Shown: in pieces, positions 7,322 to 25,242 of the stretch | How the letters are laid out: each line of letters starts with the position of its first letter | Position numbering within the stretch: the stretch's first letter is position 1 | Assembly: GCA_903851385.1 (NCBI GenBank) | Contig: CAINOC010000036.1 | Coordinates: forward strand, 13,273-77,272 | Source: an uncultured Chlorobiaceae bacterium | GTDB lineage: Bacteria > Bacteroidota > Chlorobiia > Chlorobiales > Chlorobiaceae | Length of the DNA stretch: 64,000 nucleotides | Direction of reading: 5' to 3' | The notes under the pieces: model-generated | What the model saw: only the letters and a program-made list of their open reading frames with translations | Database searches by the model: none | Told to the model about the DNA's origin: nothing | Position numbers and translations under genes: made by a program

Positions 7322-8029
7322 ATGTTTTTAAATAATCACCCGGTTTTTGCGCTTGTGCCAGCTCGAGGAGGATCAAAAGGGATCCCAAGAAAAAATATGT
7401 CCGATTTACAGGGTAGTCCTTTAATTGCATACACATTACGAGCCGCGTTTGCAGCAAAAATGATTGATAATGTTTGGGTCTCTTCAGATGATACGGAGAT
7501 TTTATCATTTGCACTGTCATTAGGTGCCCTTGTTATTGAAAGACCTTCAGAATTTGCCACTGATGATGCCTCGGCGGTTGATGTTGTAATGCATTTTCTA
7601 TCGGCACTTCCAAATAATCTTCGCACTCAAGATCCATTAATTGTTTATTTACAGCCAACATCTCCACTGCGTACAGCAAAACATATTGATAGTGCACTAG
7701 AGTTACTCATTGATAAGATGGAGAGTTGCTTGGTAAGTGTAGTCGCCTTGAGTAAATCGCTTTACAAATCATTCGGATTGGATTCCAATGGAAAGTTACA
7801 ATCTCTTTTTGATGAGAGGCTGTCAAATGAACGACGTCAGGATTTACCACTAATGTATATCCCAAATGGGGCAATCTATATATTTAAGGCTTCTGATTTT
7901 GACAAACGTAATGGGTTTCCATCGAATGGAAGTATTCCATTTATTATGCCTGAGCTTGAAAGTATAGATATTGATACTCCTGAAGACTTTGTAAAAGTTG
8001 AAAAACTATTAAAAGAAAATCATGGGTGA
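7322..8029 (+). CDS. neuA: Acylneuraminate cytidylyltransferase (CMP-sialic acid synthetase)
   Basis: PARGGSKGIPRKN, LQPTSPLR, NGAIY, SIDIDTPEDF; first gene of the neuABC run. Confidence 0.92.
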   Translation: MFLNNHPVFALVPARGGSKGIPRKNMSDLQGSPLIAYTLRAAFAAKMIDNVWVSSDDTEILSFALSLGALVIERPSEFATDDASAVDVVMHFLSALPNNLRTQDPLIVYLQPTSPLRTAKHIDSALELLIDKMESCLVSVVALSKSLYKSFGLDSNGKLQSLFDERLSNERRQDLPLMYIPNGAIYIFKASDFDKRNGFPSNGSIPFIMPELESIDIDTPEDFVKVEKLLKENHG

Positions 8030-9071
8030 ATTTAGTATTGCGGGAAGGCTAATTGGCGACCAACATCCCCCTTTAGTAATTGCCGAAATCGGAATAAATC
8101 ATGAGGGTAGTCTAAATACTGCCATTATGATGGCGGATGCTGCCATTGATGCTGGAGCTGAGATAATAAAGCACCAGACGCATGTTGTGGATGATGAGAT
8201 GTCAGAAGAAGCAAAATTTGTTATTCCTGCTAATTCAGATGTTTCGATATATGAAATAATGTCGCGATGCTCACTGTCGGAGACTGACGAATATAAGCTG
8301 ATGCTACATATTCAGTCTCGCGGTGCAATATTTCTTAGTACGCCATTTTCCCGAGCTGCAGCTGATCGGCTCTTACGTTTTAATGTGCCTGCATATAAAA
8401 TAGGATCAGGTGAGTGCAATAATTATCCCTTGTTAAAGCATATCGCTAGGTTTGGTAAGCCCATTATTCTTAGTACAGGCATGAATTCGATAAGCACTAT
8501 TCGACCATCTGTTGAAATATTTCGTTCGGCCGGAGTACCGTTTGCTCTTTTACACTGCACTAACATCTACCCGACTCCTCCTGAACTTGTCCGTCTCGGT
8601 GCGATGCAACAGCTTAAAGCAGAGTTTCCTGATGCGGTTGTTGGTCTTTCAGATCACACAATCTCAAATCATGCTTGCTTCGGGGCTGTGGCCTTAGGTG
8701 CTTCAATCATAGAGCGACATTTCACCGATAGAATGGATCGGCTAGGGCCTGATATTGTTTGCTCTATGGACCCACTGTCCCTAACAGATCTTATTCAAGG
8801 TTCGCAAGTGATTTTCAGTGCCCGTGGTGGTGAAAAAACTTCTTTAATCGAAGAGGCACCAACGAAAGCTTTTGCATTTACATCTGTAGTCGCGACGAAA
8901 AATATTGAAGCAGGGGAGCTTCTTAGTCAAGATAATATATGGGTGCGTCGGCCAAGTGGTGGAGATTTTTCGGCTGTAAATTTCGAATTTTTATTAGGCC
9001 AAAAGGTTATTCAGGCTTTATCTAGTGGCGAGCGTCTTACTAAAGAACATTTATCGAAAAGCGATGATTGA
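8022..9071 (+). CDS. neuB: N-acetylneuraminate synthase
   Basis: IAEIGINHEGS, KHQTH, STPFSRAAA, KIGSGECNNYPL, HCTNIYPTP, GLSDHT, ERHFTDRMDR.GPD, C-terminal SAF/AFP domain; closely resembles the Neisseria SiaC/Campylobacter NeuB1 type (from recall). Confidence 0.93.
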   Translation: MGEFSIAGRLIGDQHPPLVIAEIGINHEGSLNTAIMMADAAIDAGAEIIKHQTHVVDDEMSEEAKFVIPANSDVSIYEIMSRCSLSETDEYKLMLHIQSRGAIFLSTPFSRAAADRLLRFNVPAYKIGSGECNNYPLLKHIARFGKPIILSTGMNSISTIRPSVEIFRSAGVPFALLHCTNIYPTPPELVRLGAMQQLKAEFPDAVVGLSDHTISNHACFGAVALGASIIERHFTDRMDRLGPDIVCSMDPLSLTDLIQGSQVIFSARGGEKTSLIEEAPTKAFAFTSVVATKNIEAGELLSQDNIWVRRPSGGDFSAVNFEFLLGQKVIQALSSGERLTKEHLSKSDD

Positions 9072-10218
9072 TGGAAATCGTAAAATAGTGTTTCTCACTG
9101 GTACGCGTGCAGATTTTGGTAAACTCAAGCCGTTGATACAAAAAATTCAGGATGACGCTTCTTATGAGGTACATATATTTGTTACAGGTATGCATATGCT
9201 AGCTAAATATGGCTACACTTGTGAAGAAGTTGAACGAGCAGGCTTTAGAAATATTTTCAAATACATCAATCAAAATTCATCCGATGGTATGGACTATGTT
9301 CTTGCCAAAACAATTGTTGGTCTATCTGACTATGTTAGAGAAATTAACCCTGACTTGATTATTGTGCACGGTGACCGTGTTGAAGCCTTGGCAGGTGCAA
9401 CAGTTGGCGCATTGAATAATATATTGACCGCTCACATTGAGGGTGGTGAGGTTTCGGGCACTGTTGACGAAATGATAAGGCATGCAATTACAAAACTAGC
9501 ACATATTCATTTAGTATCTAATGAGCAAGCAAGGATGCGACTTGTACAACTCGGCGAGCTTGCTGATTCAATTCATGTTATTGGATCCCCGGACGTTGAT
9601 GTCATGAATTCCAATACCCTCCCGTCACTACAAGAGGTCAAACGTCACTATCAAATAAATTATATCTCTTATGCTGTGATGGCATTTCATCCTGTTACAA
9701 GTGAACGAAAAGACCTAAAACGACAAATAAGTATTATCGTTGACCAGTTGATCAAATCGCATAGAAATTATATTGTTATATATCCCAATAATGACCATGG
9801 TACAGAAGTTATTTTTGAAGAATACCAGAGAGTGATTGGTCTCCAGCGCTTTCGCTTATTTCCTTCTATGCGCTTTGAATACTTTCTTTCATTACTAAAA
9901 CATGCAGACTTTATAATCGGCAACTCCAGCGCTGGTGTTCGAGAGGCGCCTAATTTTGGGGTACCTACAATAAATTTAGGCTCTCGTCAATTTCATAGGG
10001 TTTCATGTCCTTCAGTGATGGATGTTCCTATACAATCAGAATCCGTTGAAACCGCAATTTCAGAAATAAGCTTAGTGCCTCGGCAGTCCTATAAGCTTTT
10101 CGGTAATGGTAGTAGCGCGTTGCTGTTTCATAAAATTCTCTCTACTAAAGCCTTTTGGCTAACACATACTCAAAAATATTTTGTCGATCAGAAAATATCA
10201 AAAGAATCAAAATTATAG
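9064..10218 (+). CDS. neuC: UDP-N-acetylglucosamine 2-epimerase (hydrolysing)
   Basis: TGTRADFGKLKP, VTGMH, VHGDRVE, HIEGGE.SGTVDE, GNSSAG.REAP. Confidence 0.93.
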   Translation: MIDGNRKIVFLTGTRADFGKLKPLIQKIQDDASYEVHIFVTGMHMLAKYGYTCEEVERAGFRNIFKYINQNSSDGMDYVLAKTIVGLSDYVREINPDLIIVHGDRVEALAGATVGALNNILTAHIEGGEVSGTVDEMIRHAITKLAHIHLVSNEQARMRLVQLGELADSIHVIGSPDVDVMNSNTLPSLQEVKRHYQINYISYAVMAFHPVTSERKDLKRQISIIVDQLIKSHRNYIVIYPNNDHGTEVIFEEYQRVIGLQRFRLFPSMRFEYFLSLLKHADFIIGNSSAGVREAPNFGVPTINLGSRQFHRVSCPSVMDVPIQSESVETAISEISLVPRQSYKLFGNGSSALLFHKILSTKAFWLTHTQKYFVDQKISKESKL

Positions 10219-10236
10219 CGAAAAGAGCACTCACAC

Positions 10237-11226
10237 ATGGATCATGAAAAAGTTTTAAAATTAATTGAAGAAGCTAAAGCTTTTGATGCTCAAATCGATG
10301 AGCGGATTTCCAATGGACACATACCTGATCTTCGTAATTGTAAACCATGTGATTGGTTTGAAAACAATCCATGGCGTAGGCCAGCTTATGTTGAGCTTTC
10401 ATTTGGCGAACAATTCAGTCTTATCCGCGATGCAATTAACGAACATGTTGAAAATAAGGGGAGGGAAGAAAAGGTTCGCATATTAGAAGTTGGATGTGGT
10501 CCAGGGTATCTTTCACTCGAATTGTCGCGTTCAGGATTTGATGTTACGGGATTGGATTTGAGTTCAAAATGTATTGAGGTAGCTGAGTGTTTTGCAGCCA
10601 AGGATGATGAGATAGCTGTTAGAGGCGGACTTAGATATGTTGTGGCTGATTTCTTTGATGCCCATTCATTAACAGTAGGTAGTTTTGACGCCGTTGTATT
10701 TCTTGGTTCAATGCATCATTTTAGTGATATAGCATCAGTCCTGGATCATGTCAGTGAATTATTAAAGTCTAGGGGAATAATTATAGCTCATGAACCTGTA
10801 CGCGACAGAGTAACTCATGGTAACGCAGTTTTTGTATCATTATTGCGGGTTTTATTATCTCTTCAAGGCGGTTTTTTTAAAAAATATACGATCCCTGTTG
10901 ATGCTGATGCGAGAAAGCAGGAGTTTGAGCGTCTATTCTCGGAGATGCGGTATGAGTCATCTGAGGGGGAAAATTTTCAGTCAGTTAACGATAATGAAGC
11001 AGGATACGCTGAAATGAGGCCTGCCCTTGATGCTCAGTTTGATTTGCTTGAATTCTCTTGGCGATATGCATTCTTTCATGAGTTCATCGGTGGATTAAGA
11101 TTCAATGACCATCAAAACATTGAACTTGCGTCCTACTTACGCGAAATTGATCGCGAGCTTTGTCGTCTTGGTGTGCTTTCAGCTACTGAATTTTTTTATG
11201 TTGGACGTAAATTTTCTGATAGATAA
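10237..11226 (+). CDS. Class I SAM-dependent methyltransferase
   Basis: ILEVGCGPG, VTGLDLS, FDAVVFLGSMHH. Confidence 0.85.
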   Translation: MDHEKVLKLIEEAKAFDAQIDERISNGHIPDLRNCKPCDWFENNPWRRPAYVELSFGEQFSLIRDAINEHVENKGREEKVRILEVGCGPGYLSLELSRSGFDVTGLDLSSKCIEVAECFAAKDDEIAVRGGLRYVVADFFDAHSLTVGSFDAVVFLGSMHHFSDIASVLDHVSELLKSRGIIIAHEPVRDRVTHGNAVFVSLLRVLLSLQGGFFKKYTIPVDADARKQEFERLFSEMRYESSEGENFQSVNDNEAGYAEMRPALDAQFDLLEFSWRYAFFHEFIGGLRFNDHQNIELASYLREIDRELCRLGVLSATEFFYVGRKFSDR

Positions 11227-11243
11227 AACAATAACATGTAATC

Positions 11244-12452
11244 ATGATCAAAACATATTACGGCTTGCCCGAAGAAGTTATATTTTGTAAAGACTGCGTA
11301 ATATCAAATCAGCGACCGAGTTCAACTGTAGAGTTCAAACATACAAAGAACGAAAAGAAGGATACAATTGGTTTTGCTGATGATGGAGTGTGTGATGCGT
11401 GTCATTATCAAAAAGTAAAAGCGAAGGACATTAGTTGGGAAAAACGAAATAAATCATTAATTGACTTGCTCGATAAACATCGTCGAAGTGATGGTGGGTA
11501 TGACGTAATTGTCCCTGGTAGTGGCGGTAAAGATAGTGCTTACACATCTCATATTCTTAAGTATAAGTATGGTATGAATCCGCTTACAGTAACATGGGCA
11601 CCTCACAAATATACTGAGATTGGTTGGAAAAATTTTGAGAACTGGATTCATATAGGTGGCCATGATAATATTTTATTTACTCCAAATGGTCGTTTACATC
11701 GATATTTGACTCAACAGGCATTTCTCAATCTTTTGCACCCATTTCAGCCGTTTATTGTAGGACAACGAATTATTGGGCCATTAATGGCTGCAAAATTTGG
11801 TGTAAAGTTGGTAATGTATGGAGAAAACCAAGCAGAGTATGGCAATAACCCTGATGACAACTTAACGCCAACAATGGATAAGAAATTTTTCTCAGTTAGT
11901 AATCCTGAAGACATGATTCTTGGTGGTAAGTCGGTGAAAAATATCATTGCTGAAAAACAGTTTTTGCTAAACGATTTTGCTCCTTACATCCCCCCTACAG
12001 CAGAATACCTCGAAAGTAAGGGTGTCGAAGTGCATTACCTTGGTTACTACTTAAAATGGGATCCTCAAGAGTGTTACTATTACGCCGTTGAAAATACAGG
12101 CTTTCAGGCTAACAGTGAGCGGACAGAGGGGACGTATTCAAAATATAGCAGTATAGATGATCAAATAGATATGTTTCATTACTATACGACACTTATCAAG
12201 TTTGGTATAGGCCGTGCCACATATGATGCTGCTCAAGAAATTAGAAATGGTAAGATTACGCGAGAAGAGGGTGTGAGTCTCGTCAAAAGATATGATGAAG
12301 AATTTCCGTATAAATATTTTCATGCTTTTCTCGAATATATAGATATAACTGAAGAATTATTTTACAAGACTATAGATCGGTTTCGTTCACCTCATTTGTG
12401 GAATCATGAAAATGGAGTGTGGAAATTGCGTCATGCAGTTTGGAGTATTTAA
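11244..12452 (+). CDS. N-acetyl sugar amidotransferase (WbuX/PseA/WbpG family)
   Basis: CxxC at FCKDC and CDAC; PP-loop PGSGGKDS; followed by HisF/HisH-like genes. Confidence 0.9.
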   Translation: MIKTYYGLPEEVIFCKDCVISNQRPSSTVEFKHTKNEKKDTIGFADDGVCDACHYQKVKAKDISWEKRNKSLIDLLDKHRRSDGGYDVIVPGSGGKDSAYTSHILKYKYGMNPLTVTWAPHKYTEIGWKNFENWIHIGGHDNILFTPNGRLHRYLTQQAFLNLLHPFQPFIVGQRIIGPLMAAKFGVKLVMYGENQAEYGNNPDDNLTPTMDKKFFSVSNPEDMILGGKSVKNIIAEKQFLLNDFAPYIPPTAEYLESKGVEVHYLGYYLKWDPQECYYYAVENTGFQANSERTEGTYSKYSSIDDQIDMFHYYTTLIKFGIGRATYDAAQEIRNGKITREEGVSLVKRYDEEFPYKYFHAFLEYIDITEELFYKTIDRFRSPHLWNHENGVWKLRHAVWSI

Positions 12453-12453
12453 C

Positions 12454-13224
12454 TTGAGAAATATTCGACTTATAGCGAGATTAGATGTTAAAGGTCAAAA
12501 TTTGATCAAGGGTATTCATTTGGAAGGTCTTCGAGTTATTGGATCACCTAATGAATACGCATTACGCTATTATTGTCAGGGCGCAGATGAGCTGATATAT
12601 ATGGATTGTGTTGCAAGTCTTTATGGTCGCAACCATCTGAGCGAAATAATTAGAAAGGCTGCAGAAAATATCTTTATACCGATGACTGTAGGAGGGGGAA
12701 TTCGATCAGTTGACGATGCAACTCAGATTCTTCGTGCTGGAGCAGATAAAGTTGCAGTAAATACTGCTGCAGTTTCTAACCCTCAACTTATTAGAGATAT
12801 TGCTCGATCATTTGGCAGTCAGTGTATGGTACTTTCAATTGAAGCCAAGCAGATATCTGCAAATCGCTGGGAAGTTTATACCGACAATGGGCGTGAACGC
12901 ACTGGATTAGATGTTGTTGAGTGGGTTAAGCGTGGGGTAAATTTGGGAGCTGGCGAAGTTTTGCTCACTTCCGTTGATCGAGAGGGTACCAGAAAAGGCT
13001 TCGATATAGAGCTACTTAAGGCTGTTACTGCTCAAGTTTCTGTTCCAGTAATTGCCAGCGGAGGTATGGGAAAAGCGGAGGATTTAGTAGAAGTGGTGGA
13101 GCTGGGGAGTGCTGACGCGGTTGCTATGGCTGATATTTTACATTATAAGAGATCTAATATTGTTGAAATTAGGGCTATTGCTCAAGCCGCAGGTTTGGGA
13201 GTGAGGCACTATGAGCAAGACTAA
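12454..13224 (+). CDS. HisF-like cyclase subunit of a sugar amidotransferase complex (WbuZ-like)
   Basis: RLIARLDVKG, GADELIYMD, GGGIRS, SVDREGT, ASGGMG; TTG start at 12454 after GGAG. Confidence 0.88.
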   Translation: MRNIRLIARLDVKGQNLIKGIHLEGLRVIGSPNEYALRYYCQGADELIYMDCVASLYGRNHLSEIIRKAAENIFIPMTVGGGIRSVDDATQILRAGADKVAVNTAAVSNPQLIRDIARSFGSQCMVLSIEAKQISANRWEVYTDNGRERTGLDVVEWVKRGVNLGAGEVLLTSVDREGTRKGFDIELLKAVTAQVSVPVIASGGMGKAEDLVEVVELGSADAVAMADILHYKRSNIVEIRAIAQAAGLGVRHYEQD

Positions 13225-13858
13225 AGTAACTGTGATTGATTACGGTGTTGGGAATCTCTTGAGTGTGCAGAGAGGATTTGAATATTTTGGTGCCTCTGTT
13301 ATTGTAACTGCAGATCCAAAAAAAATTCTTGAAGGGAGCCGAGTTGTGCTACCGGGAGTAGGGGCTTTTGGTAAAGCCATGCAAGCTCTTGAAGATCGAG
13401 GATTTGTTGAGACGATTCATGAGATTGTTAACCGACAAATTCCTCTCTTAGGTATTTGCTTAGGGATGCAAATGTTGTTGGATGAAAGTGAAGAGTTTGG
13501 CATAACCAAAGGACTCGGCTTAATCCCTGGTCGAGTCGTTTCTTTACCAACAGTTACATTATCGGGTGAAACACTGAAAATTCCTAATATTGGGTGGAAT
13601 TCCCTGTTACCATCTAATCAATCAAGTGATTGGAATAAAACATTGTTACAAAATATCAGTTCAGGAGATGCTGCTTATTTTGTTCACTCATTCATGGCGG
13701 TTCCCATTAATCGTTCTGATCGTATTGCGGATTATCTCTATGGTGGTCAAAAAATTTCAGCGGTAATTGGTTACAATCAAATAACAGGGTGCCAGTTTCA
13801 TCCTGAAAAGAGCGGAAAGGTTGGCTTAAAGATTCTGAAAAGATTTCTTTTACAGTAA
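13211..13858 (+). CDS. HisH-like glutamine amidotransferase (WbuY-like)
   Basis: DYGVGNL, LPGVGAF, GICLGMQ (catalytic Cys), YFVHS, QFHPEKS (His/Glu). Confidence 0.9.
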   Translation: MSKTKVTVIDYGVGNLLSVQRGFEYFGASVIVTADPKKILEGSRVVLPGVGAFGKAMQALEDRGFVETIHEIVNRQIPLLGICLGMQMLLDESEEFGITKGLGLIPGRVVSLPTVTLSGETLKIPNIGWNSLLPSNQSSDWNKTLLQNISSGDAAYFVHSFMAVPINRSDRIADYLYGGQKISAVIGYNQITGCQFHPEKSGKVGLKILKRFLLQ

Positions 13859-15194: not shown

Positions 15195-15241
15195 AAAATA
15201 GGTCATTTGTCCAATTGATTCAAAATATACATTTCCCTAAA

Positions 15242-16240
15242 ATGCTTACTAATACATCTATTCTAATAACCGGTGGCACCGGCTCTTTTGGCCAAACATT
15301 TGTTCCCCTAACCCTTGCCAAATATAACCCTCGTCGCCTTGTCATTTACTCCCGAGACGAAATGAAACAGTGGGAAATGGCCAAACTTTATGGCAACGAC
15401 CCAAGAGTACGTTTTTTCATAGGCGATGTACGCGATAAAGATCGCCTTGCCCGTGCTCTTACAGGTATTGATTATGTCGTTCACGCAGCAGCAACTAAAA
15501 TCGTTCCCACAGCCGAGTACAACCCATTTGAGTGCGTCAAAACAAATGTCATTGGAGCCATGAACCTCATTGACGCTAGTATAGATCAGGGTGTTAAACG
15601 TGTTGTGGCCCTTTCAACTGACAAGGCAAGTAGTCCGGTGAATCTTTATGGCGCAACCAAACTAACTTCCGACAAACTTTTTATAGCTGGTAATTCATAT
15701 TCAGGCACAAAAGACACTCGTTTTGCCGTTGTACGTTACGGAAACGTTATGGGCTCAAGGGGATCGGTGATCCCTTTCTTTCTTGCCCTTGCGGATCAAG
15801 GTGTTTTACCCATTACCGATGAGCGGATGACTCGCTTCATGATAACACTTGAGCAGGGAGTCGAACTTGTTTGGCATGCCTTCGAGGATACAGTTGGTGG
15901 TGAAATCTATGTTAAAAAGATTCCATCCATGACACTGGTGGATATTGCGCGTGCCGTTGCACCAGATGCGCACTATGATATAGTAGGTATTCGTCCTGGT
16001 GAAAAACTGCATGAACAGATGATTAGCTTTGAGGATGCTCCGCATACTTATGAATATACAAGCCATTACAAAATATTGCCAGCAATCCACAATTGGAGCC
16101 GTGACCCTGAGAGAATCAACGGAGGGAACCCCGTTGGTCTTGACTTTACCTACCGTTCAGACAACAACACACAATGGATGAGCATTGATGCATTACGTTC
16201 TTGGATTCAGGTGAACCGTGAACATATTGGCAAGATCTGA
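15242..16240 (+). CDS. pseB: UDP-N-acetylglucosamine 4,6-dehydratase (inverting)
   Basis: ITGGTGSFG, SRDEMKQ, HAAATKIVP.AEYNP, STDKA..P.NLYGATK, RYGNV.GSRGSV, RPGEKLHE. Confidence 0.95.
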   Translation: MLTNTSILITGGTGSFGQTFVPLTLAKYNPRRLVIYSRDEMKQWEMAKLYGNDPRVRFFIGDVRDKDRLARALTGIDYVVHAAATKIVPTAEYNPFECVKTNVIGAMNLIDASIDQGVKRVVALSTDKASSPVNLYGATKLTSDKLFIAGNSYSGTKDTRFAVVRYGNVMGSRGSVIPFFLALADQGVLPITDERMTRFMITLEQGVELVWHAFEDTVGGEIYVKKIPSMTLVDIARAVAPDAHYDIVGIRPGEKLHEQMISFEDAPHTYEYTSHYKILPAIHNWSRDPERINGGNPVGLDFTYRSDNNTQWMSIDALRSWIQVNREHIGKI

Positions 16241-16245
16241 CCACT

Positions 16246-17424
16246 ATGATTCCCTACGGACGTCAAAATATTAACCAGGCCGATATCGACGCGGTCGTTA
16301 AGGTTCTGCAGTCAGAATTTATAACCCAAGGCCCCGTTGTCCCGGCTTTCGAAAAAGTCGTTGCCAGTTATTGCAGCGCGCTGCATGCAGTAGCAGTCAA
16401 CAGTGCTACTAGCGCATTGCACATCGCATGTCTTGCCTTGGGTGTCTGTAAGGGTGATATTGTCTGGACAACGCCCATAACTTTTGTGGCCAGTGCCAAT
16501 TGTGCACTGTATTGCGGTGCAATGGTGGATTTTGTGGATATAGATCCGAAAACGTACAACCTGAGCGTTGAACGCCTAGAGGAAAAGCTTGTAAAGGCTG
16601 AAAAGGCGGGCACTTTGCCCAAAGTCGTTATTCCTGTGCATCTGTGCGGTCAACCTTGTGATATGGAAGGTATTAATTCCCTCAGTAAATACTATGGCTT
16701 TAAAATTATTGAAGATGCCTCACACGCAATTGGAGGGCGCTATAAAGATGAACCTATAGGCAACTGCCGATATAGTGACATCACTATTTTTAGCTTTCAT
16801 CCCGTCAAAATAATCACGACAGGGGAGGGTGGGATGACGTTAACCAATAACAAGCAATTGGCAAAAAGCATGCGCCTCTTGCGTTCTCATGGCATTACAA
16901 CTGATCCTGCAGATATGCATCCTCGGCCTGAGGGAGAATTTTGGAATTACCAACAGATAAATCTCGGGTATAACTACCGCATGACAGATATTCAGGCAGC
17001 GTTGGGGCTAAGTCAAATGCAACGGCTTAATGATTTTGTTTCTAAGCGTCATACTATCGCAAAGCAATACAATCAAATGTTATCTGCCCTGCCAGTAGTT
17101 CAACCTTGGCAGCATCCTGATAGCTATTCAAGCTTCCATCTTTATGTTATTCGCTTGAAACTCGATGAAATCAACAAGACACACAGGGAAGTCTATGAGA
17201 TGCTCAGGGCTGCAGGGGTACTCGTTAACCTTCATTATATACCTGTTTATCGCCAGCCATATTATGAGCAAATGGGATTTTGTGCGGGTTACTGTGCTGA
17301 AGCGGAGCAATATTATTCAGAGGCGATTAGCCTGCCTATGTATCCGGGACTTAGCGAGCTTCAGCAGGATTATGTGGTGACAGTAATTGAAAATGCGTTA
17401 AATGGTCAGGATAATCATGATTAA
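16246..17424 (+). CDS. pseC: UDP-4-amino-4,6-dideoxy-N-acetyl-beta-L-altrosamine transaminase
   Basis: MIPYGRQ, NSATSALH, EDASHA, FSFHPVKIITTGEGG (PLP Lys), GYNYRMTDIQAALG. Confidence 0.93.
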   Translation: MIPYGRQNINQADIDAVVKVLQSEFITQGPVVPAFEKVVASYCSALHAVAVNSATSALHIACLALGVCKGDIVWTTPITFVASANCALYCGAMVDFVDIDPKTYNLSVERLEEKLVKAEKAGTLPKVVIPVHLCGQPCDMEGINSLSKYYGFKIIEDASHAIGGRYKDEPIGNCRYSDITIFSFHPVKIITTGEGGMTLTNNKQLAKSMRLLRSHGITTDPADMHPRPEGEFWNYQQINLGYNYRMTDIQAALGLSQMQRLNDFVSKRHTIAKQYNQMLSALPVVQPWQHPDSYSSFHLYVIRLKLDEINKTHREVYEMLRAAGVLVNLHYIPVYRQPYYEQMGFCAGYCAEAEQYYSEAISLPMYPGLSELQQDYVVTVIENALNGQDNHD

Positions 17425-18475
17425 TAAGTTGTTAAGCAACATCCCCGGCTCAGCTGGGATGATAATTAACAGTCGTATCGGCTGTAAGGAATTATGGGAT
17501 CAGACTTTCAACAGCCTACCTTATAAGTCGGTTGCATACTCGAATACCAGCCTTGATTATCAGTTAGCATATCAGCAGGGGCATGGCGGGAGCTGGTTTG
17601 ATTTTTCGTCAGTTATTTATTCGGATAATAAACCGGTCGCTTTATGGCCTCTGACTATCTCAATAAAAGATAATGCGGCAAGATTGACATCTCAGGGTAG
17701 TCCTGTTTTGGCTCCGGTTTTTCTTGCGGATTGTCCGGCCGTGTCCCGCAAGCGGATTATAAAAATTTGCATTGAACTAGCTAATGCTCTTGCAATTGCT
17801 TATAAAATAAGCGAATGGGAAAGTGGCGAATCATTTTCCCGTTCAATCGGCATGAGCGAATGGCATATTCAATCCATGGGAAGAGACTCTCTCTGCCATG
17901 TGTTTCATGAACTTTATATTGACCTTGGGTTAGATATTGCCGAAATAAAAAGAAATTTTCGTAAAAGATTTAAATCACTTGTTGTTTCCGGTTCTAAGTT
18001 ATGGGCGGTCGGTGTTCTTGATGGCCAGAATGATGGGGAGATATGGTCAGAGTTTCGTGATTTGCACCATAAGGTCTCAGGCAGAGTCACCCGATCTGAT
18101 GAAACATGGATGATGCAATATCAGGATATTCTATTCGGGCGTGCTTTTTTGGTCTGGTTAAGAAACAGCTGTGGTGAAATGGTAGGGGGAGGACTTTTTA
18201 ACTTTACGGATGATGAGGGAGTTTATGCCGTTGGGGCATATGATCGTACCCTTTTTGATAAACCTTTGGGGCATGTTGTTCAATATAGAGCCATTGAAGA
18301 GCTGAAAAAACGCAATGTAAGCTGGTATAAAATAGGTGTTAGACCCTATGCTTCAGACAATCCAAAACCCACTGAGAAGGAAATATCAATTGGAGAGTTC
18401 AAGCAGGGTTTCTCATCCCACTGTTTTCCGCACTATCGCCTGACACACAACGTTGTTCAACAACAAGAGGCTTGA
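17417..18475 (+). CDS. FemAB-like / GNAT-fold acyl or aminoacyl transferase
   Basis: C-terminal FemAB-like block (YIDL...IKRNFRKRFKSLV; YAVGAY..., FKQGF); embedded in the pse block. Confidence 0.65.
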   Translation: MINKLLSNIPGSAGMIINSRIGCKELWDQTFNSLPYKSVAYSNTSLDYQLAYQQGHGGSWFDFSSVIYSDNKPVALWPLTISIKDNAARLTSQGSPVLAPVFLADCPAVSRKRIIKICIELANALAIAYKISEWESGESFSRSIGMSEWHIQSMGRDSLCHVFHELYIDLGLDIAEIKRNFRKRFKSLVVSGSKLWAVGVLDGQNDGEIWSEFRDLHHKVSGRVTRSDETWMMQYQDILFGRAFLVWLRNSCGEMVGGGLFNFTDDEGVYAVGAYDRTLFDKPLGHVVQYRAIEELKKRNVSWYKIGVRPYASDNPKPTEKEISIGEFKQGFSSHCFPHYRLTHNVVQQQEA

Positions 18476-18683
18476 GACTGGAGATGGGCTTACATTTTCT
18501 GTGGCCTGAACACATGAATTTGACCTGAGATTATGTTGAAAACAGTTTGGAACGAGTTGCGCCGCTGCCTGTTCACCAAGACATTTTGTCATCATTGTTA
18601 ACAAGACGTTTTATGTATTCAACAGCAAGCTGCATTACATTACTCTGAGTAACGATGCGTTTAAATATTATCGATATAGTTAG

Positions 18684-19568
18684 GTGACAGTTCTGGAAGA
18701 GACGAAGCTTGCTCTTGGTACAGCTCAATTTGGTTTGCCATACGGCATTGCAAATCAAACCGGCCAGGTAAGCAGGGAGGATGTCTCTGCGATGCTGCAA
18801 CTTGCAGCATCCAATGGAATTGATACCCTTGATACGGCGATTGTCTATGGAGAGAGTGAAGTTGCTCTTGGGCATGCAGGTACTCAGGGTTTCAAGTTGG
18901 TGACAAAGCTGCCGGCACTGCCGAATGACTGCCCTCATGTTCTTACTTGGGTTATGGAGCAGGTTGGCGCCTCATTTACTCGTCTCGGGGTGAGCTCTTT
19001 TTATGCTTTGTTGCTGCATCGTCCGGAGCAACTGCTTGGTCCGCTTGGAAAAGAGTTGTATGAAGCATTATATGCCTTGAAAGAGCGCGGCAAAGTGCAA
19101 AAAGTCGGTGTTTCCATCTATAACCCTCTTGAACTGGATGAACTGACCCGACTATTTCATTTTGATCTTGTGCAAGCTCCTTTTAATATTATTGATAGTC
19201 GTCTCCATCGGACAGGCTGGCTTCAACGGCTCAAGGATGATGAGGTTGAAATTCATACCCGTTCAGCTTTTTTGCAGGGTTTGCTACTTATGCCGGAAGA
19301 GAACATGCCGTCAAAATTCACTCCCTGGAGTAATTTATTTCAGAGATGGTATACCTGGCTTGCAGAACACCATATCTCTGCAGTTCAGGCTTGTCTGGAA
19401 TTTTCACTCTCCTTTCCCGAAATTGATCGGGTTATAGTTGGCGCCGACAGCCTCAATCAGCTTGATGAAATTATTAAAGCTGCCCGCATGACAATTCCTG
19501 ACAATCTTCCTGATCTTTATTGTGAGGCAGAAAACCTTATTAATCCTGCACGCTGGTCCTGTTTATGA
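18684..19568 (+). CDS. Aldo/keto reductase
   Basis: LALGTAQFGLPYG, DTAIVYGESE, LLLHRP, GVSIY, VQAPFN, IHTRS.FLQGLL; GTG start. Confidence 0.88.
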   Translation: MTVLEETKLALGTAQFGLPYGIANQTGQVSREDVSAMLQLAASNGIDTLDTAIVYGESEVALGHAGTQGFKLVTKLPALPNDCPHVLTWVMEQVGASFTRLGVSSFYALLLHRPEQLLGPLGKELYEALYALKERGKVQKVGVSIYNPLELDELTRLFHFDLVQAPFNIIDSRLHRTGWLQRLKDDEVEIHTRSAFLQGLLLMPEENMPSKFTPWSNLFQRWYTWLAEHHISAVQACLEFSLSFPEIDRVIVGADSLNQLDEIIKAARMTIPDNLPDLYCEAENLINPARWSCL

Positions 19569-21592
19569 AAATCGTTGCCCTTGTTCAGGCCCGCATGGGT
19601 TCAACTCGCCTGCCAAATAAGGTTATGAAACTTATCGGTGGCATACCAATGATTGAGTTGTTGTTAGAAAGGTTATCAAAGTCAAACGAGCTTGACCAAA
19701 TTGTTGTAGCTACTTCAGTCGATAAACGCAATCAACCGCTGGTTTCCCATATAAGAAAGCTTGGTTATGCCTGTGAGCAGGGAAGTGAAAATGACGTTCT
19801 CGACCGCTATGTAGAGGCAGCTAAAGCCCACAATGCGGATGTGGTTGTCCGGATAACCGGTGACTGCCCGCTTGTCGATCCAGAGCTTGTTGACGAATGT
19901 ATTCGCGGGTTCAAGGCTGCCGGAGTTGATTACTATAGCAATGCCAATCCCCCCTCATATCCTGATGGTCTTGATGTAGAGGTTTTCAGTTATAAAGCTC
20001 TTGAAAAGGCGGCAAAGGAAGCCGAGGAGCCGTTTGAACGTGAGCATGTTACTCCTTATCTGCGCAAGTCCGCTCTTTTCAGTATTGCTTCAATGGAGCC
20101 TGTCGAGGATTTGTCTTCACTGCGCTGGACTGTTGATGATCCTGTAGACTTTGTTGTAATTGAAAGTGTGTTCCGGCATTTTCATCCGCGCACGGATTTC
20201 GCATGGAGGGAAGTGCTTGATCTCCAGCATCAACAGCCAGAAATATTCAGCATTAACAGGAATACCCCTCGTAACGAAGGAGCGACTATGGGTACCGGTC
20301 AGAAATTATGGAAACGCGCGAAGCAAATCATCCCTGGCGGCAACATGTTGCTTTCCAAACGAGCTGAAATGTTTCTTCCTGATCAATGGCCGGCCTATTT
20401 CAGTAAGGCCAAAGGCTGTAAAGTGTGGGATATGGACGGAAAAGAATATATCGATATGTCCATCATGGGAATTGGTACCAATATTCTTGGTTATGGTCAT
20501 CCGGAAGTCGACGACGCAGTGAGAGCAACTATTGATGCTGGTAACATGTCAACCTTCAATTGTCCGGAAGAGGTCTATTTGGCAGAGAAGTTGATTGAGC
20601 TGCATCCTTGGGCCGACATGGCTCGCCTTGCCCGTTCTGGGGGCGAAGCCAATGCAATAGCAATTCGTATAGCTCGTGCAGCTTCAGGCAAAGATAAAGT
20701 AGCTATTTGTGGCTATCATGGTTGGCACGACTGGTATCTTTCGGCAAATCTTGGTGACGACAAAAGTCTGGACGGACATTTATTACCAGGGCTTGAGCCT
20801 AATGGTGTTCCAAGAAGCTTGCGAGGCACTGTATTTCCTTTCAATTACAACAACATTGCTGAACTTGAAGCGCTGGTTAACACACATGATATCGGTGTGA
20901 TCAAGATGGAAGTTGTTCGTAACGCCGGACCTGAGGACAACTTTCTGCAAAAAGTTCGCCAGCTTGCTACAGATCGAGGTATTGTGCTGATTTTTGATGA
21001 GTGCACCTCGGGTTTCCGCGAAACTTATGGAGGTCTTCACAAAAAGTATGGGGTTGAGCCCGATATGGCCATGTTTGGTAAAGCCTTGGGTAATGGATAT
21101 GCTATCACAGCCACGATTGGTAGGCGCGAAGTCATGGAAGCTGCACAAACCACATTCATTAGCAGCACCTTCTGGACAGAGCGCATCGGCCCCACTGCCG
21201 CACTCAAAACGCTTGAAGTTATGGAACGGGTCAAATCTTGGGAAACAATCACCAAAACAGGTTTGATTATCCGACAAGGCTGGCAGCAACTTGCCGATAA
21301 GCATGATCTTAAGTTAAATGATTGGGGATTGCCTGCGCTTACAGGGTTTTCTTTTTTAGCGACCAATGCGCTTGCTTACAAGACCCTTGTTACCCAGGAA
21401 ATGCTTGCTAAAGGCTATCTTGCTGGTAACAGTGTCTATGTTTGTACTGAACATACTTCGGTTGTCGTGGCTGATTTCCTTGAAGCGCTTGATCCAATAT
21501 TTGCTCTTATCAAAGAGTGCGAAGAAGGACGGGATGTAATGAGCCTGCTGAAAGGCCCGATATGCCATGGTGGTTTTAAACGATTGAATTGA
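19565..21592 (+). CDS. SpsF-type cytidylyltransferase fused to a class III aminotransferase
   Basis: N-domain QARMGSTRLPNK, GSENDVLDRY, RITGDCPL, REHVTP, RWTVD; C-domain IPGG, DMDGKEYID, SGGEAN, GYHGWHDW, FDECTSGFR, FGKALGNG. Confidence 0.88.
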   Translation: MKIVALVQARMGSTRLPNKVMKLIGGIPMIELLLERLSKSNELDQIVVATSVDKRNQPLVSHIRKLGYACEQGSENDVLDRYVEAAKAHNADVVVRITGDCPLVDPELVDECIRGFKAAGVDYYSNANPPSYPDGLDVEVFSYKALEKAAKEAEEPFEREHVTPYLRKSALFSIASMEPVEDLSSLRWTVDDPVDFVVIESVFRHFHPRTDFAWREVLDLQHQQPEIFSINRNTPRNEGATMGTGQKLWKRAKQIIPGGNMLLSKRAEMFLPDQWPAYFSKAKGCKVWDMDGKEYIDMSIMGIGTNILGYGHPEVDDAVRATIDAGNMSTFNCPEEVYLAEKLIELHPWADMARLARSGGEANAIAIRIARAASGKDKVAICGYHGWHDWYLSANLGDDKSLDGHLLPGLEPNGVPRSLRGTVFPFNYNNIAELEALVNTHDIGVIKMEVVRNAGPEDNFLQKVRQLATDRGIVLIFDECTSGFRETYGGLHKKYGVEPDMAMFGKALGNGYAITATIGRREVMEAAQTTFISSTFWTERIGPTAALKTLEVMERVKSWETITKTGLIIRQGWQQLADKHDLKLNDWGLPALTGFSFLATNALAYKTLVTQEMLAKGYLAGNSVYVCTEHTSVVVADFLEALDPIFALIKECEEGRDVMSLLKGPICHGGFKRLN

Positions 21593-23110
21593 ATGACTTC
21601 GATGAATATTGCCATTCGTATCGATGCTTCAAGCCAAATCGGAACCGGACATTTTATGCGTTGCTTAACTTTAGCCGATGCGTTGAGCCTGCGAGGGGCA
21701 CAAATTCGCTTTATCAGCCGTAATTTACTAGAGCACTTGCAGGATTTGTTGCTGAATAAGGGTTATGAATTCATGATGCTTAAGAAGCAAACAAATGAAA
21801 CGTCTAGTGATGACTTGGCTCATTCTCATTGGCTGGGGGCTACTCAGCAATACGATGCAGATGAGGCGCTTAAACTCCTCTCAGATAGAATCTGGGATTG
21901 GCTGGTTGTTGATCATTACGCATTGGATGCTCGCTGGGAGTCAGCACTTCGAAAATCAGCAAAGCGAATTTTGGTTATTGACGATCTTGCTGATCGTATG
22001 CATGACTGCGATATATTGCTCGATCAGAATTATTATGCAGATAAGGAAACACGCTACACAGGGAAGGTTCCTGCAAACTGCCAGCTATTGCTTGGGCCGC
22101 GTTATGCTCTTCTTCGAGAAGAATTCCGTCAATGGCGTCAGCAGGTTAAACCTCGCACCGGACTAGTAAAAAGAATCCTTGTGTTTTTTGGTGGCGTTGA
22201 TGCCGATAACTTCACAGGATTAACCATTGAAGCACTGGCTGGTCTTGGTCTGAGCGGGGTGCATATTGATGTAGTCATAGGGGCACAACATCCTTATCGT
22301 GAACAGATTGAATCAGCGTGTTTAGAATATATGTTTTCCTGTTATGTACAAACTGATCGAATGGCAGAGTTGATGGCAAAAGCAGACTTGGCTATTGGAG
22401 CAGGAGGTTCCGCGACTTGGGAGCGTTGTTGTTTAGGATTACCAGCATTTGCAATCTGCACAGCTTCAAATCAGAGCAAGCAGGTTGCCGATGCTGCCAG
22501 CAGAGGGTTGCTGTACACATCTGAAATAAATGACGGCTTAAAGACTTTGATCAAGCGTCATTTACCTGCACTCATAGACAATAGCCACTTGATTAAATTC
22601 ATCTCAAATAATGACTTGCAAACTGTTGATGGTAGAGGTGTTTCGCGAGTCATCAGAAACATGGGTTGCAGCAGGATTGAAATTCGAATTGCAACAGAAG
22701 GTGACTCGGAGAAAATTTTCGAGTGGCGTAATCACCAAACAGTCAGGGCTGTGTCGCGTAACAGTGAGGTAATCAGTTGGGAGGATCATCAGAAATGGCT
22801 TGCTGAAGTCCTGTCATCTCAAGTACAAGCGTTGCTTATTGGGTATAGTAATGGCTTGGAAATAGGTGTGGTTCGATTTGATAGCAGGGATTATGAAGCT
22901 GAAGTTTCGATCTATCTTGTTCCTGGTATAAAAGAATCTGGATTAGGAAGCGACCTTTTACAGATTGGTGAGCAGTGGTTTACAACTCACTTTCCCCAAA
23001 TTCAAAAAATCTTTGCTTGTGTTCTCGGAGATAACAGCCGTTCTAACCATCTGTTTTTGGGGGCAGGCTATCGGGTTGAGTCAACCTCTTACATTAAAGA
23101 GCTCGCATGA
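21593..23110 (+). CDS. pseG: PseG UDP-sugar hydrolase fused to a PseH-like GNAT N-acetyltransferase
   Basis: RIDAS.QIGTGH.MRC, VDHY, VIDDLADR, FFGGVD, GAGGSATWERC; C-terminal GNAT domain (IFEWRNH..VR...). Confidence 0.88.
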   Translation: MTSMNIAIRIDASSQIGTGHFMRCLTLADALSLRGAQIRFISRNLLEHLQDLLLNKGYEFMMLKKQTNETSSDDLAHSHWLGATQQYDADEALKLLSDRIWDWLVVDHYALDARWESALRKSAKRILVIDDLADRMHDCDILLDQNYYADKETRYTGKVPANCQLLLGPRYALLREEFRQWRQQVKPRTGLVKRILVFFGGVDADNFTGLTIEALAGLGLSGVHIDVVIGAQHPYREQIESACLEYMFSCYVQTDRMAELMAKADLAIGAGGSATWERCCLGLPAFAICTASNQSKQVADAASRGLLYTSEINDGLKTLIKRHLPALIDNSHLIKFISNNDLQTVDGRGVSRVIRNMGCSRIEIRIATEGDSEKIFEWRNHQTVRAVSRNSEVISWEDHQKWLAEVLSSQVQALLIGYSNGLEIGVVRFDSRDYEAEVSIYLVPGIKESGLGSDLLQIGEQWFTTHFPQIQKIFACVLGDNSRSNHLFLGAGYRVESTSYIKELA

Positions 23111-24165
23111 CTATGATTGATGGGTTCAAAATAGCTGACAGGATGATAGGGAAAAACCATTCTCCTTTCATCATAGCAGAAATGTCTGGCAACCATAACC
23201 AGTCACTTGATCGGGCATTGGAAATCGTTGAAGCTTTAGCAATGTCCGGTGCTCACGCCTTGAAAATTCAGACCTATACTCCTGAAACAATGACTCTTGA
23301 TCTGGATGAGCGTGAGTTTCATATCAGTGACCCAAATAGTTTATGGGCAGGCACATCGCTATATAAGCTTTACAGCGAAGCATATACTCCATGGGAGTGG
23401 CACAAGCCGATTTTTGATCGGGCACACGAACTAGGTCTGATTCCGTTTAGTACGCCTTTTGATGATACAGCAGTCGACTTTCTTGAAACTCTTGATGTGC
23501 CATGTTATAAGATAGCCTCGTTTGAGAACACAGATATACCTCTTATTCGTCGGGTGGTTGCCACAGGAAAGCCAGTGATTATTTCAACAGGCATGGCAAC
23601 CGTTGCCGAACTGGACGAAACAGTTCGAGCAGCACGCGAAGCTGGCTGCAAAGACTTGATTCTGCTCAAGTGTACTAGCACCTATCCAGCTACTGCAGAT
23701 AACACTAATATTTTAACTATCCCACATCTTCGTAATCTCTTCGATTGTGAAGTAGGGCTATCCGATCACACTATGGGTGTTGGGGTTTCAGTTGCCAGTG
23801 TTGCACTTGGTGCAACTGTTATCGAGAAACACTTCACTCTTAATCGTGCTGATGGAGGTGTAGACAGTGCATTCTCAATGGAGCCAGCTGAAATGGCCCA
23901 ACTCGTGTTAGAAACAGAACGAGCATGGCAGTCCCTCGGTCAAGTTAGCTATGGTACTACAGAAGCTGAAATAAAGTCTCTTCAATATCGCCGATCACTC
24001 TATGTGGTAAAAGACCTTAAAGCAGGAGATGTTCTCACTCATGACAATGTGCGCGCAATTCGACCGGGATTAGGTATAGCGACTAAGTATATTGATGTGG
24101 TTATAGGAAAAACAGTGAAGCAGAATGTGACGCGAGGAACAGCTATGTCTTGGGCAATCTTGTGA
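23107..24165 (+). CDS. pseI: Pseudaminic acid synthase
   Basis: IAEMSGNHNQS, KIQTYT, AYTPWEWH, KIASFE.TD, KCTSTYP, GLSDHT, EKHFTL.R.DGGVDS.FS, SAF domain. Confidence 0.93.
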   Translation: MTMIDGFKIADRMIGKNHSPFIIAEMSGNHNQSLDRALEIVEALAMSGAHALKIQTYTPETMTLDLDEREFHISDPNSLWAGTSLYKLYSEAYTPWEWHKPIFDRAHELGLIPFSTPFDDTAVDFLETLDVPCYKIASFENTDIPLIRRVVATGKPVIISTGMATVAELDETVRAAREAGCKDLILLKCTSTYPATADNTNILTIPHLRNLFDCEVGLSDHTMGVGVSVASVALGATVIEKHFTLNRADGGVDSAFSMEPAEMAQLVLETERAWQSLGQVSYGTTEAEIKSLQYRRSLYVVKDLKAGDVLTHDNVRAIRPGLGIATKYIDVVIGKTVKQNVTRGTAMSWAIL

Positions 24166-24234: not shown

Positions 24235-25242
24235 ATGATGCTTCAAAAGTTAAAACAAAGCCTGCACTTACTTGCCCCTGCATCTATATTATCACAAACA
24301 GAATTTGGTAAGCTGACAGGGGAATTTTCCTTGAAAGCTTTGGATGTGGGAGCAAGAGGTGGCTTTGATACTTTACTGACTCCTATTGCTGATATCGTCG
24401 AATTCATTGGTTTTGAACCTGATGAAGCGGAAGTTAAACGACTCGAAGCTGATCGTTTATCGAAAGGTCCCTGGGCAAGCGTTCGGTACTTGCCAGTGGC
24501 ATTAGGTAATACTGCTGATTCTAGATTGTTGTTTTTGACGCAGAGTCCTGGTTGTTCCTCTTTGTTGCCATCCAACCCTTATATGTACACTCGTTATGGT
24601 AGGGAGGAACTTTTCACGGTGGTTGGCACCACCGAAGTGGCGACTGTTATGCTTGATGATGCGGCGAGTAAGTATTCATTCCAAGAGGCTTCATATTTAA
24701 AGATAGATATTCAGGGTGCTGAACTGGAAGTTCTTAAAACAGGCCAAAAGCTTCTTTCAGACTCTATTGTTGCTATTCGTGCGGAGGTCGAGTTCCAGCA
24801 AATTTATAAAGATCAACCGCTTTTTCGAGATATCGATACTTTTCTTTCGGAGCAAGGTTTTCACCTCGTTGACTTTCATCAACCTGTCACTTGGCCTTTG
24901 CAAGCTTCTGGGGCTTCTTTAAAGAGTCCTTTTGTGATTGGTCGTGATTGCTTGGGCGAACTGATTCATGCAGATGCTTTGTATTTTCGGAACCTTGATG
25001 ATTTTTCCGATGCCAATGAGAACGGGATTTCCGTTTGTATAAAAGCGGCCATGATTGCTCTTGCTTATGGACGCCTTTCTTATGCTGCCGTATTATTTAG
25101 TAAAAAGCGGGTTAAAGAGTATCTCGCAAATGCTTATGGTGTCGATGTTGAGAAAGCGATGGAAGAAGCAAAGTTGATGATGATTAAGCACAACAAAAGA
25201 AATCGATTATTGTCATTGGTCCGTCTTATCCTTGGTAGATAA
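24235..25242 (+). CDS. FkbM-family methyltransferase
   Basis: LDVGARGG, GFEPD, LKIDIQGAELEVL, EVEF..IYK.QPLF. Confidence 0.85.
   Translation: MMLQKLKQSLHLLAPASILSQTEFGKLTGEFSLKALDVGARGGFDTLLTPIADIVEFIGFEPDEAEVKRLEADRLSKGPWASVRYLPVALGNTADSRLLFLTQSPGCSSLLPSNPYMYTRYGREELFTVVGTTEVATVMLDDAASKYSFQEASYLKIDIQGAELEVLKTGQKLLSDSIVAIRAEVEFQQIYKDQPLFRDIDTFLSEQGFHLVDFHQPVTWPLQASGASLKSPFVIGRDCLGELIHADALYFRNLDDFSDANENGISVCIKAAMIALAYGRLSYAAVLFSKKRVKEYLANAYGVDVEKAMEEAKLMMIKHNKRNRLLSLVRLILGR

Follow-up and report, generated by a model that had tools for sequence, protein, structure and literature searches.

What do an aldo/keto reductase (AKR) and a cytidylyltransferase fused to an aminotransferase contribute to a gene block for pseudaminic acid (Pse)? 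The question is raised by a 64,000-nucleotide stretch of DNA (here called, as a whole, the window) from an uncultured Chlorobiaceae bacterium (GCA_903851385.1, contig CAINOC010000036.1, positions 13,273 to 77,272). The stretch (genome G000, contig C36) is a large polysaccharide locus, and its source is a green sulfur bacterium of the Chlorobium type. The AKR gene (18684–19568, plus strand; 294 aa, GTG start) and the fusion gene (19565–21592, plus strand; 675 aa, ATG start) share an ATGA overlap at 19565–19568 and are translationally coupled. An earlier note on this DNA had described such an overlap between an AKR gene and the fusion, and both open reading frames are indeed present, the AKR gene being intact. 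The fusion consists of an SpsF-type cytidylyltransferase (CT) domain (19565–20284, plus strand; residues 1 to ~240) and a class-III, glutamate-1-semialdehyde (GSA)-aminomutase-like, pyridoxal phosphate (PLP)-dependent aminotransferase (AT) domain (20285–21592, plus strand; residues ~241–675), and is denoted CT::AT below. The best explanation is that the AKR and CT::AT form one tailoring-and-activation module on an otherwise complete Pse pathway (PseB, PseC, a PseH-like GNAT protein, PseG and PseI). For this module, extra amination of the sugar by an oxidase–transaminase pair is the best-supported mechanism, as judged by analogy and from gene architecture.

Predicted activity of the AKR and of the AT domain

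Residues 8–273 of the AKR match the Aldo_ket_red family (PF00248) with 105 bits, the gathering cut-off being 24. In an alignment with IolS (1pyf), the tetrad D50, Y55, K75 and H112 falls on the motifs DTAxxYG, TK and H; it is invariant in 21 members of the AKR clade, so that the protein looks active by its sequence. Assignment to the KidO-like regulators (NF011432) was considered and rejected, as the AKR reaches 146.4 bits against a cut-off of 244 and its catalytic tetrad is intact. Homologues of the AKR longer than 516 aa are all fused to a CT, PseC, NeuB, PseG or AT domain. Since every one of these partners belongs to nonulosonate synthesis, the AKR clade appears to be dedicated to nonulosonic acid pathways.

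The AT domain belongs to the Aminotran_3 family (PF00202; residues 276–581, 142.1 bits). The PLP lysine (K506, within FGKALGNG) is near-invariant and the aspartate that contacts the pyridine nitrogen (D478) is invariant; the domain is accordingly predicted to look active as well. Its best sequence matches in the PDB are an aminomutase (2cfb, 153 bits) and 7lld (117 bits), and it has the fold and the PLP-binding residues in common with HemL and with the GenB-type C-6' aminotransferases (7lld). HemL itself differs: the AT of the window has a CT joined to it, lies within a sugar operon and scores far under the HemL cut-off (TIGR00713; 183 bits against 527). This score, together with a separate HemL-like gene in G000 at C106:19929–21059, led to rejection of the possibility of a second HemL. 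In an AlphaFold2 model of the fusion both halves are confident (mean predicted local distance difference test score, pLDDT, 90; predicted template modelling score 0.70), with a pLDDT of ~90–97 for the CT and lower confidence near residues 231–250, which form the linker. Mean identity over the 120 closest homologues is 90% for the AT half and 75% for the CT half. Identity is 88–94% for the AT, compared with 64–88% for the neighbours, and no other part of the cluster is as conserved, so that the uncharacterised half of the protein is the most constrained one.

The CT domain and its probable role in activation of the sugar

The genes surrounding the module supply most of the canonical six-enzyme set for cytidine monophosphate (CMP)-Pse (PseB, C, H, G, I and F). 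All are on the plus strand. Upstream lie pseB (15215–16240; TIGR03589, 522 bits) and pseC (16246–17424; TIGR03588, 553 bits); downstream, a pseG::GNAT fusion (21593–23110; PseG, 309 bits) and pseI (23107–24165; 498 bits). PseB, PseC, PseG and PseI exceed their NCBIfam equivalog cut-offs, while the PseH-like GNAT domain stays under its own (52.7 bits to PseH, cut-off 93.1). The set is also incomplete in that no PseF is present, which directs attention to the CT domain of the fusion.

This domain matches CTP_transf_3 (PF02348; residues 4–171, 114.7 bits), and its closest solved relative is annotated simply as 'cytidylyltransferase' (6oew; E-value, 3.8e-38). Across 12 diverse CT domains, residues R10, S13, R15, K19, D100, E160, H161, D191 and D195 do not vary. 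The domain falls outside the PseF family (TIGR03584; it scores 28 bits when the genome is scanned and is not matched at E 1e-8), and no gene of G000 scores above the PseF cut-off. The claim of the earlier note that PseF is missing holds to that extent; it is weakened by NeuA/PseF-like CTs elsewhere in the genome, one in the neighbouring gene block, outside the cassette (7322–8029, plus strand; TIGR03584, 160.7 bits against a cut-off of 205.7), and another on contig C115. The C115 gene (L105, 9624–10376, minus strand) is the third NeuA-like CT and is 40% identical to the CT at 7322–8029. It lies beside a DegT-type aminotransferase gene, and no NeuB/PseI homologue was found in the 20 kb of sequence covered.

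In a sample of 121 Chlorobia genomes, G000 included, PseI is above cut-off in 15 and PseF in 12. Five genomes have PseI together with a fusion at least 77% identical to that of the window (G000, G053, G082, G090 and G027), and none of the five has PseF, which is found in 7 of the 10 other PseI-positive Chlorobia; as the genomes are few and related, this complementarity is a pattern and not a statistic. A NeuA/PseF-like CT is also absent from the 10-kb flanks of the syntenic loci in other phyla, except for L010 and L011, which contain further sugar clusters. Two other CTs of this kind, SpsF (PMC7439481) and FlmC (PMC7591256), have been placed genetically at the CMP-activation step. The CMP-nonulosonate synthetase of the Pse block is thus likely to be the CT domain.

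A further arrangement complicates this picture. In L103, in L104 and in the Chlorobium genome G063, a genuine PseF (260–307 bits, over the cut-off of 205.7) is fused to the AKR and directly precedes CT::AT, and the CT domain beside PseF::AKR keeps all of the invariant residues, which suggests that this domain is more than a PseF stand-in. The proposal of the earlier note that the CT stands in for PseF is therefore sustained for this lineage, though not as a full account: the complementarity in Chlorobia and the lack of other CTs near the syntenic loci speak for it, and the PseF::AKR genes beside CT::AT speak against it. That the module keeps its own CT although another one is present may mean either that the modified sugar needs a dedicated synthetase, in which case tailoring would take place on the free sugar, or that the CT holds the CMP-sugar for the tailoring enzymes. 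Second, stand-alone SpsF-type CT genes were observed after pseI in two Chlorobia relatives that have the same cassette (G053:C25:39318–40064, L108; G027:C21:10071–10805, L106), at the position where the window has an FkbM methyltransferase gene (24235–25242). Each of them contains one in-frame TGA, and they are possibly decaying redundant copies.

Comparison with known systems

The closest parallel by architecture is EpaAB from prophages of Acinetobacter baumannii, in which EpaA (CTP_transf_3 and Aldo_ket_red, 542 aa) and EpaB, a short-chain dehydrogenase/reductase (SDR), convert Pse5Ac7Ac to its 8-epimer, as seen by nuclear magnetic resonance of the capsule (PMC12053666). Like the module of the window, Epa combines a CT, an AKR and one further enzyme as an add-on to a complete Pse pathway, and EpaA brings its own CT to hosts that already have PsaC (PMC12053666). 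The relatives with the Epa architecture (CT::AKR followed by an SDR) have the same invariant residues in CT and AKR as the window proteins. Epa differs in its partner enzyme (SDR), in its domain order (CT::AKR) and in its outcome (C8 epimerisation), and EpaA was compared by architecture; a search of a phage collection with the AKR as the query gave only unrelated Gram-positive AKRs and no EpaA.

ElaABC of A. baumannii KL49 and Vibrio vulnificus consists of a Gfo/Idh/MocA oxidoreductase, a PseF-like CT and an SDR (PMC13656337). Based on crystal structures and docking, ElaA has been proposed to oxidise the C8 hydroxyl of CMP-Leg5,7Ac2, and ElaC to donate hydride to a single face of the resulting 8-keto sugar, with C8 epimerisation as the proposed result (PMC13656337). 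As in the window, an oxidoreductase, a CT and a second enzyme tailor a 5,7-diacetamido nonulosonic acid. The differences are that ElaB is of the PseF/NeuA type and not of the SpsF type, that the substrate is legionaminic acid (Leg), and that an SDR ketoreductase is used and no aminotransferase. One relative of the window module, P0175, carries a Gfo/Idh/MocA domain with 3EZY as its best PDB match, the entry named as nearest to ElaA by the authors of that study (PMC13656337); this likeness consists in the shared nearest entry alone and lends minor support. Of the hallmarks of Ela/Epa-type systems, the window possesses a dedicated oxidoreductase encoded with a CT in a nonulosonate locus, and it does not possess a second redox enzyme of the SDR type. 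No SDR was found in the Pse block of the window, where the class-III AT takes its place.

Other systems resemble single parts of the module. SpsF of Bacillus subtilis and FlmC of Caulobacter crescentus are, like the CT of the window, CTP_transf_3 enzymes outside the PseF family that serve in Leg or Pse activation; they were compared with the CT by description, and they are described as cytidylyltransferases only, with no fused AT or partner AKR. The logic of oxidation and amination is found in KdnB/KdnA of Shewanella, where, reportedly, a hydroxyl is oxidised and transaminated before CMP activation in the synthesis of 8-amino-3-deoxy-D-manno-octulosonic acid. The enzyme families are different, the sugar has eight carbons, and there is no CT fusion. 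A sugar of the kind that such logic would yield in the window is known from the O-polysaccharide of Flexibacter (Tenacibaculum) maritimus, which contains 5,7-diacylamido-8-amino-3,5,7,8,9-pentadeoxy-manno-nonulosonic acid (PMC3210612). According to a genomic study of 2022, the genes for this 8-amino sugar were not known (PMC9796276), and a paper on the O-antigen of Tenacibaculum maritimum describes pseB and mentions no synthase or class-III AT. No triamino nonulosonic acid pathway and no characterised 8-transaminase were found in the literature searched.

Fusion permutations and exchange of the oxidoreductase

The components of the module recur in many arrangements. AKR::CT with a separate AT occurs in L100, AKR::CT::AT in P0290, AKR::AT in P0143 and P0173, Gfo/Idh/MocA::CT::AT in P0175, and Gfo/Idh/MocA::AT in P0233. 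In L097, a GNAT::CT::AT gene adjoins a Gfo/Idh/MocA gene, pseB and pseC, and on a plasmid of the haloarchaeon Halorussus, separate Gfo/Idh/MocA, CT and AT genes lie beside a neuB homologue. AKR::PseC fusions are also present (P0286, P0291 and P0306). Since many of these fusions join genes that were already adjacent, they are evidence of a shared pathway and not of consecutive steps.

The recurring pair is thus a CT with a dedicated oxidoreductase (AKR or Gfo/Idh/MocA), the third enzyme being either an SDR or an AT. That Gfo/Idh/MocA oxidoreductases, which usually make keto-sugars for transamination, take the place of the AKR in some relatives points to oxidation as the first step. In the sister fusion type, CT::AKR, the AKR is 27–36% identical to that of the window. 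In both of the loci inspected (L101 and L102), CT::AKR is followed by an SDR gene, and in L102 the two are located within a full pseB-pseC-pseG-pseI-GNAT cluster without PseF. Among the loci inspected, SDR partners were found only with the CT::AKR type. As the AT stands where the SDR ketoreductase stands in Epa and Ela, the same kind of keto intermediate may be aminated instead of reduced. For the AT-type module, the 'epimerised' product that the earlier note had allowed for is consequently less likely, epimerisation being the job of the SDR-type sister module.

Proposed mechanism and alternatives

By analogy with the systems above, the AKR and CT::AT may carry out oxidation followed by transamination, probably at C8, to give a CMP-triamino nonulosonic acid; this is a tentative reading, with chances a little short of even. 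In the proposed scheme, the CT domain would act as the CMP-nonulosonate synthetase, and the AKR would be an NAD(P)+-dependent dehydrogenase that makes a ketone from a secondary hydroxyl group of Pse or CMP-Pse. The oxidised position would most likely be C8, by analogy, with C4 as the alternative. The class-III AT domain would then transaminate the ketone made by the AKR, and the product would be CMP-linked 5,7,8-triamino-3,5,7,8,9-pentadeoxynonulosonic acid (8-amino-8-deoxy-Pse). The new amine might subsequently be acylated, for example by a FemAB-family enzyme; aminoacylation of this amine by the FemAB-family protein encoded in the window is speculation.

Several points weigh against this scheme. 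AKRs are normally NADPH-dependent reductases, so that the order of the steps could be reversed. The oxidising enzyme of EpaAB has itself not been settled (PMC12053666), no chemistry has been published for any member of the AT-type modules in the literature searched, and the choice of C8 over C4 is drawn solely from analogy. The occurrence of PseF::AKR next to CT::AT (L103, L104 and G063) means that the CT is not always the sole activator, and its role could instead be the binding of the CMP-sugar. Many of the fusions are neighbouring genes joined together, by which consecutive steps are not proven. Finally, there are relatives of the L010 type that have no pseC, pseG or pseH nearby, where the AT may act on a different intermediate.

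It is conceivable, although fairly unlikely, that the sugar is plain diamino Pse activated by the CT, and that the AT and AKR serve to produce or trim a precursor of the side chain, such as an N-acyl or aminoacyl donor, for a FemAB, GNAT or ATP-grasp enzyme. A FemAB-family gene lies beside the module here and in L012, L029, L031 and L104, further genes for GNAT, formyltransferase and ATP-grasp enzymes are found in L014, L098 and L100, and class-III ATs often use small amines and omega-amino acids (as do the PDB relatives GabT and FumI). However, the module is kept in L016, L018 and L023 without FemAB or an extra acyltransferase, and the sugar itself is suggested as the substrate both by the fusion to the CT and by the likeness to EpaAB and ElaABC. 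In another unlikely course of events, to which we give a slightly smaller chance, the pair acts earlier, on a uridine diphosphate (UDP)-hexose or a free 6-deoxy-hexosamine intermediate, and so changes the precursor used by PseI, for instance by a second amination or reduction of the 4-keto product of PseB or by action on the aldehyde released by PseG. This is consistent with the position of the genes between pseC and pseG, with the existence of AKR::PseC fusions, with the activity of GSA-aminomutase relatives on amino-aldehydes, and with the order pseB-AKR-CT::AT-epimerase-neuB in L010, where pseC, pseG and pseH are lacking nearby. Yet the genes joined in the AKR::PseC fusions are neighbours whose stop and start codons overlap, so that these fusions may be accidental, an amine at C3 of the hexose would block closure of the pyranose ring of the nonulosonic acid, and fusion to the CT, the enzyme of the last step, favours a late step, as does the EpaAB precedent.

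The reductive habit of AKRs, together with the fact that the closest solved relatives of the AT are aminomutases (2cfb, 153 bits), also suits a reversed or mutase-like sequence, in which the AT takes off or relocates an amino group and the AKR reduces the resulting ketone, the net result being conversion of an amine to a hydroxyl or a shifted amine. In EpaAB, too, the SDR could oxidise and the AKR reduce, both options being left by PMC12053666. Such a sequence is quite improbable, as it would undo the amination by PseC, both amines are N-acetylated in the pathway, and the exchange of the AKR for Gfo/Idh/MocA enzymes fits a dehydrogenase role of the kind proposed for ElaA. Least of all is it to be expected that the module serves activation only, with the AT and AKR as structural or regulatory partners of the CT and with ordinary CMP-Pse5Ac7Ac as the product. 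Six Caulobacter enzymes, including the SpsF-type FlmC and no AKR, did suffice for Pse-dependent flagellin modification in Escherichia coli (PMC7591256), and KidO, which comes closest among the named AKR families, is a regulator; against this very improbable outcome stand the preserved catalytic residues of both enzymes, the exceptional conservation of the AT and the KidO score below cut-off. Extra amination of the nonulosonic acid thus remains the preferred reading of the module.

Distribution and gene order

Over 8000 proteins in the database match the fusion. Of the top 120, nearly all have a length of 675 aa and are 82–95% identical to it, with Chlorobium, Anaerolineaceae, Methylococcaceae, Methylobacter, Gallionella and Nitrosomonadales metagenome-assembled genomes among their named sources. 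An assembly artefact was considered as the origin of the fusion and was ruled out by the thousands of homologues of the same length. In a library clustered at 50% identity, 4366 representatives were recovered at E ≤ 1e-30, including full-length fusions down to ~32% identity. Within the Chlorobia sample, a full-length fusion occurs in only 6 of the 121 genomes, which suggests an accessory cassette that is probably horizontally mobile.

Comparison of the window proteins with the fetched loci by tblastn revealed that the order pseB-pseC-AKR-CT::AT-pseG(::GNAT)-pseI is retained from 90% to ~31% identity. It was found in Alphaproteobacteria, Verrucomicrobiales, Myxococcaceae, Janthinobacterium, Endozoicomonas, Rhodospirillaceae and metagenomic contigs; in the genome-contig scan for related loci, ~15 of the 80 loci listed were informative, HemL genes having filled the list. 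The same order is present on a plasmid of Pseudosulfitobacter, where RefSeq names only pseB, pseC, pseG and pseI. As separate genes, an equivalent set has been described in the O-antigen locus of Legionella pneumophila serogroups 6 and 12 (PMC3694923), comprising CapD/PseB, DegT, an aryl-alcohol-dehydrogenase-like AKR, a cytidylyltransferase, a 'GSA aminomutase', PseG, GNAT and NeuB (PMC3694923).

The pair occurs with pseI, a point that the earlier note had suggested as a check, in the loci with this order across phyla and in the five Chlorobia genomes. In L104 and in G063 (contig C123; L107), neither pseG nor pseI was found within 16 kb. The order of genes in these two loci is pseB-pseC-FemAB-PLP_IMCC1989-methyltransferase-PseF::AKR-CT::AT, followed downstream by four methyltransferase genes, split transketolase genes and an SDR gene. 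Another variant is seen in L010 and L011 (8121–14598), with the order pseB-AKR-CT::AT-RmlD-like epimerase/reductase-divergent NeuB-GT2. The module has as its surroundings two further sugar clusters that contain a CT, together with a Maf-like (MptE-like) gene; no pseC, pseG or pseH was found near it, and it may make a different sugar acid.

Names given to these proteins elsewhere vary. The fusion is called 'aminotransferase class III-fold PLP-dependent enzyme' or 'glutamate-1-semialdehyde 2,1-aminomutase', by which its cytidylyltransferase role is hidden, and the SpsF-type CT of the Halorussus aquaticus plasmid (L099, 8992–9735) is listed by RefSeq as a 'glycosyltransferase family protein'.

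Other features of the locus

The FemAB-family gene (17402–18475, plus strand; TIGR04421, 308 bits against a cut-off of 250) lies between pseC and the AKR gene. Within the Chlorobia sample, it is confined to three genomes with the fusion, G000, G053 and G063, and the loci outside this sample with FemAB beside the module include those of Janthinobacterium and Endozoicomonas as well as metagenomic ones. The spacer of 208 bp between the FemAB and AKR genes is conserved in part in the relative G053. Its positions 18514–18612 encode residues 291–323 (of 328) of a PLP_IMCC1989-family protein (PF27889), and this remnant is 73% identical to the intact gene found between FemAB and the AKR in L104 (tblastn over the whole window; E-value, 6e-9). 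The PLP_IMCC1989 gene and a methyltransferase gene have thus been lost from the cluster in the lineage of the window.

The window starts with genes for Wzc, a PglF-like dehydratase and an ATP-binding cassette exporter. The Pse block is preceded by a block of the neuraminic/legionaminic acid (Neu/Leg) type, with a NeuA-like CT, a NeuB-type gene, NeuC, a methyltransferase, WbuX/WbuZ/HisH and a GT29-like gene, and is followed by glycosyltransferase genes and then by an exosortase module. Within 7322–13858, the NeuB-type synthase scores 364 bits, below the NeuB cut-off of 399.65, and is followed by NeuC, the methyltransferase and WbuX/WbuZ/HisH. By its gene content, this region resembles a further pathway to a nonulosonic acid, with an acetamidino option; neither LegB nor LegC was seen within it. 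Elsewhere, at G000:C94:3032–3913 and at corresponding positions in most of the 121 Chlorobia genomes, there is a NeuB/PseI-like match (~207–219 bits, profile positions 2 to ~280). In many of these genomes the match is interrupted by one or two in-frame stops, mostly TGA.

Implications

Nonulosonic acids occur on flagella, capsules and O-antigens, where they shape immune recognition, phage adsorption and serotype. It is possible, if still rather doubtful, that the cassette is the missing route to 5,7,8-triamino nonulosonic acids, and that such sugars are a common and overlooked class on microbial surfaces. The triamino type has been seen chemically only in the O-antigen of T. maritimum, and the orphan 8-amino sugar of this fish pathogen would then be explained. 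ElaABC and EpaAB were tied to C8 epimerisation only in 2025–2026, and the AT version seems far more widespread than either of them. The labels currently in use, 'glutamate-1-semialdehyde aminomutase', 'glycosyltransferase family protein' and 'KidO', are all misleading. If the proposed route is correct, the extra amino group would be a new attachment point for acyl groups, aminoacyl groups and amide cross-links, and the module would offer a compact three-domain tool for the chemo-enzymatic synthesis of modified CMP-sugars. The class would span many bacterial phyla and the haloarchaea, in thousands of genomes, and Legionella pneumophila serogroups 6 and 12 would belong to it through their O-antigen locus.

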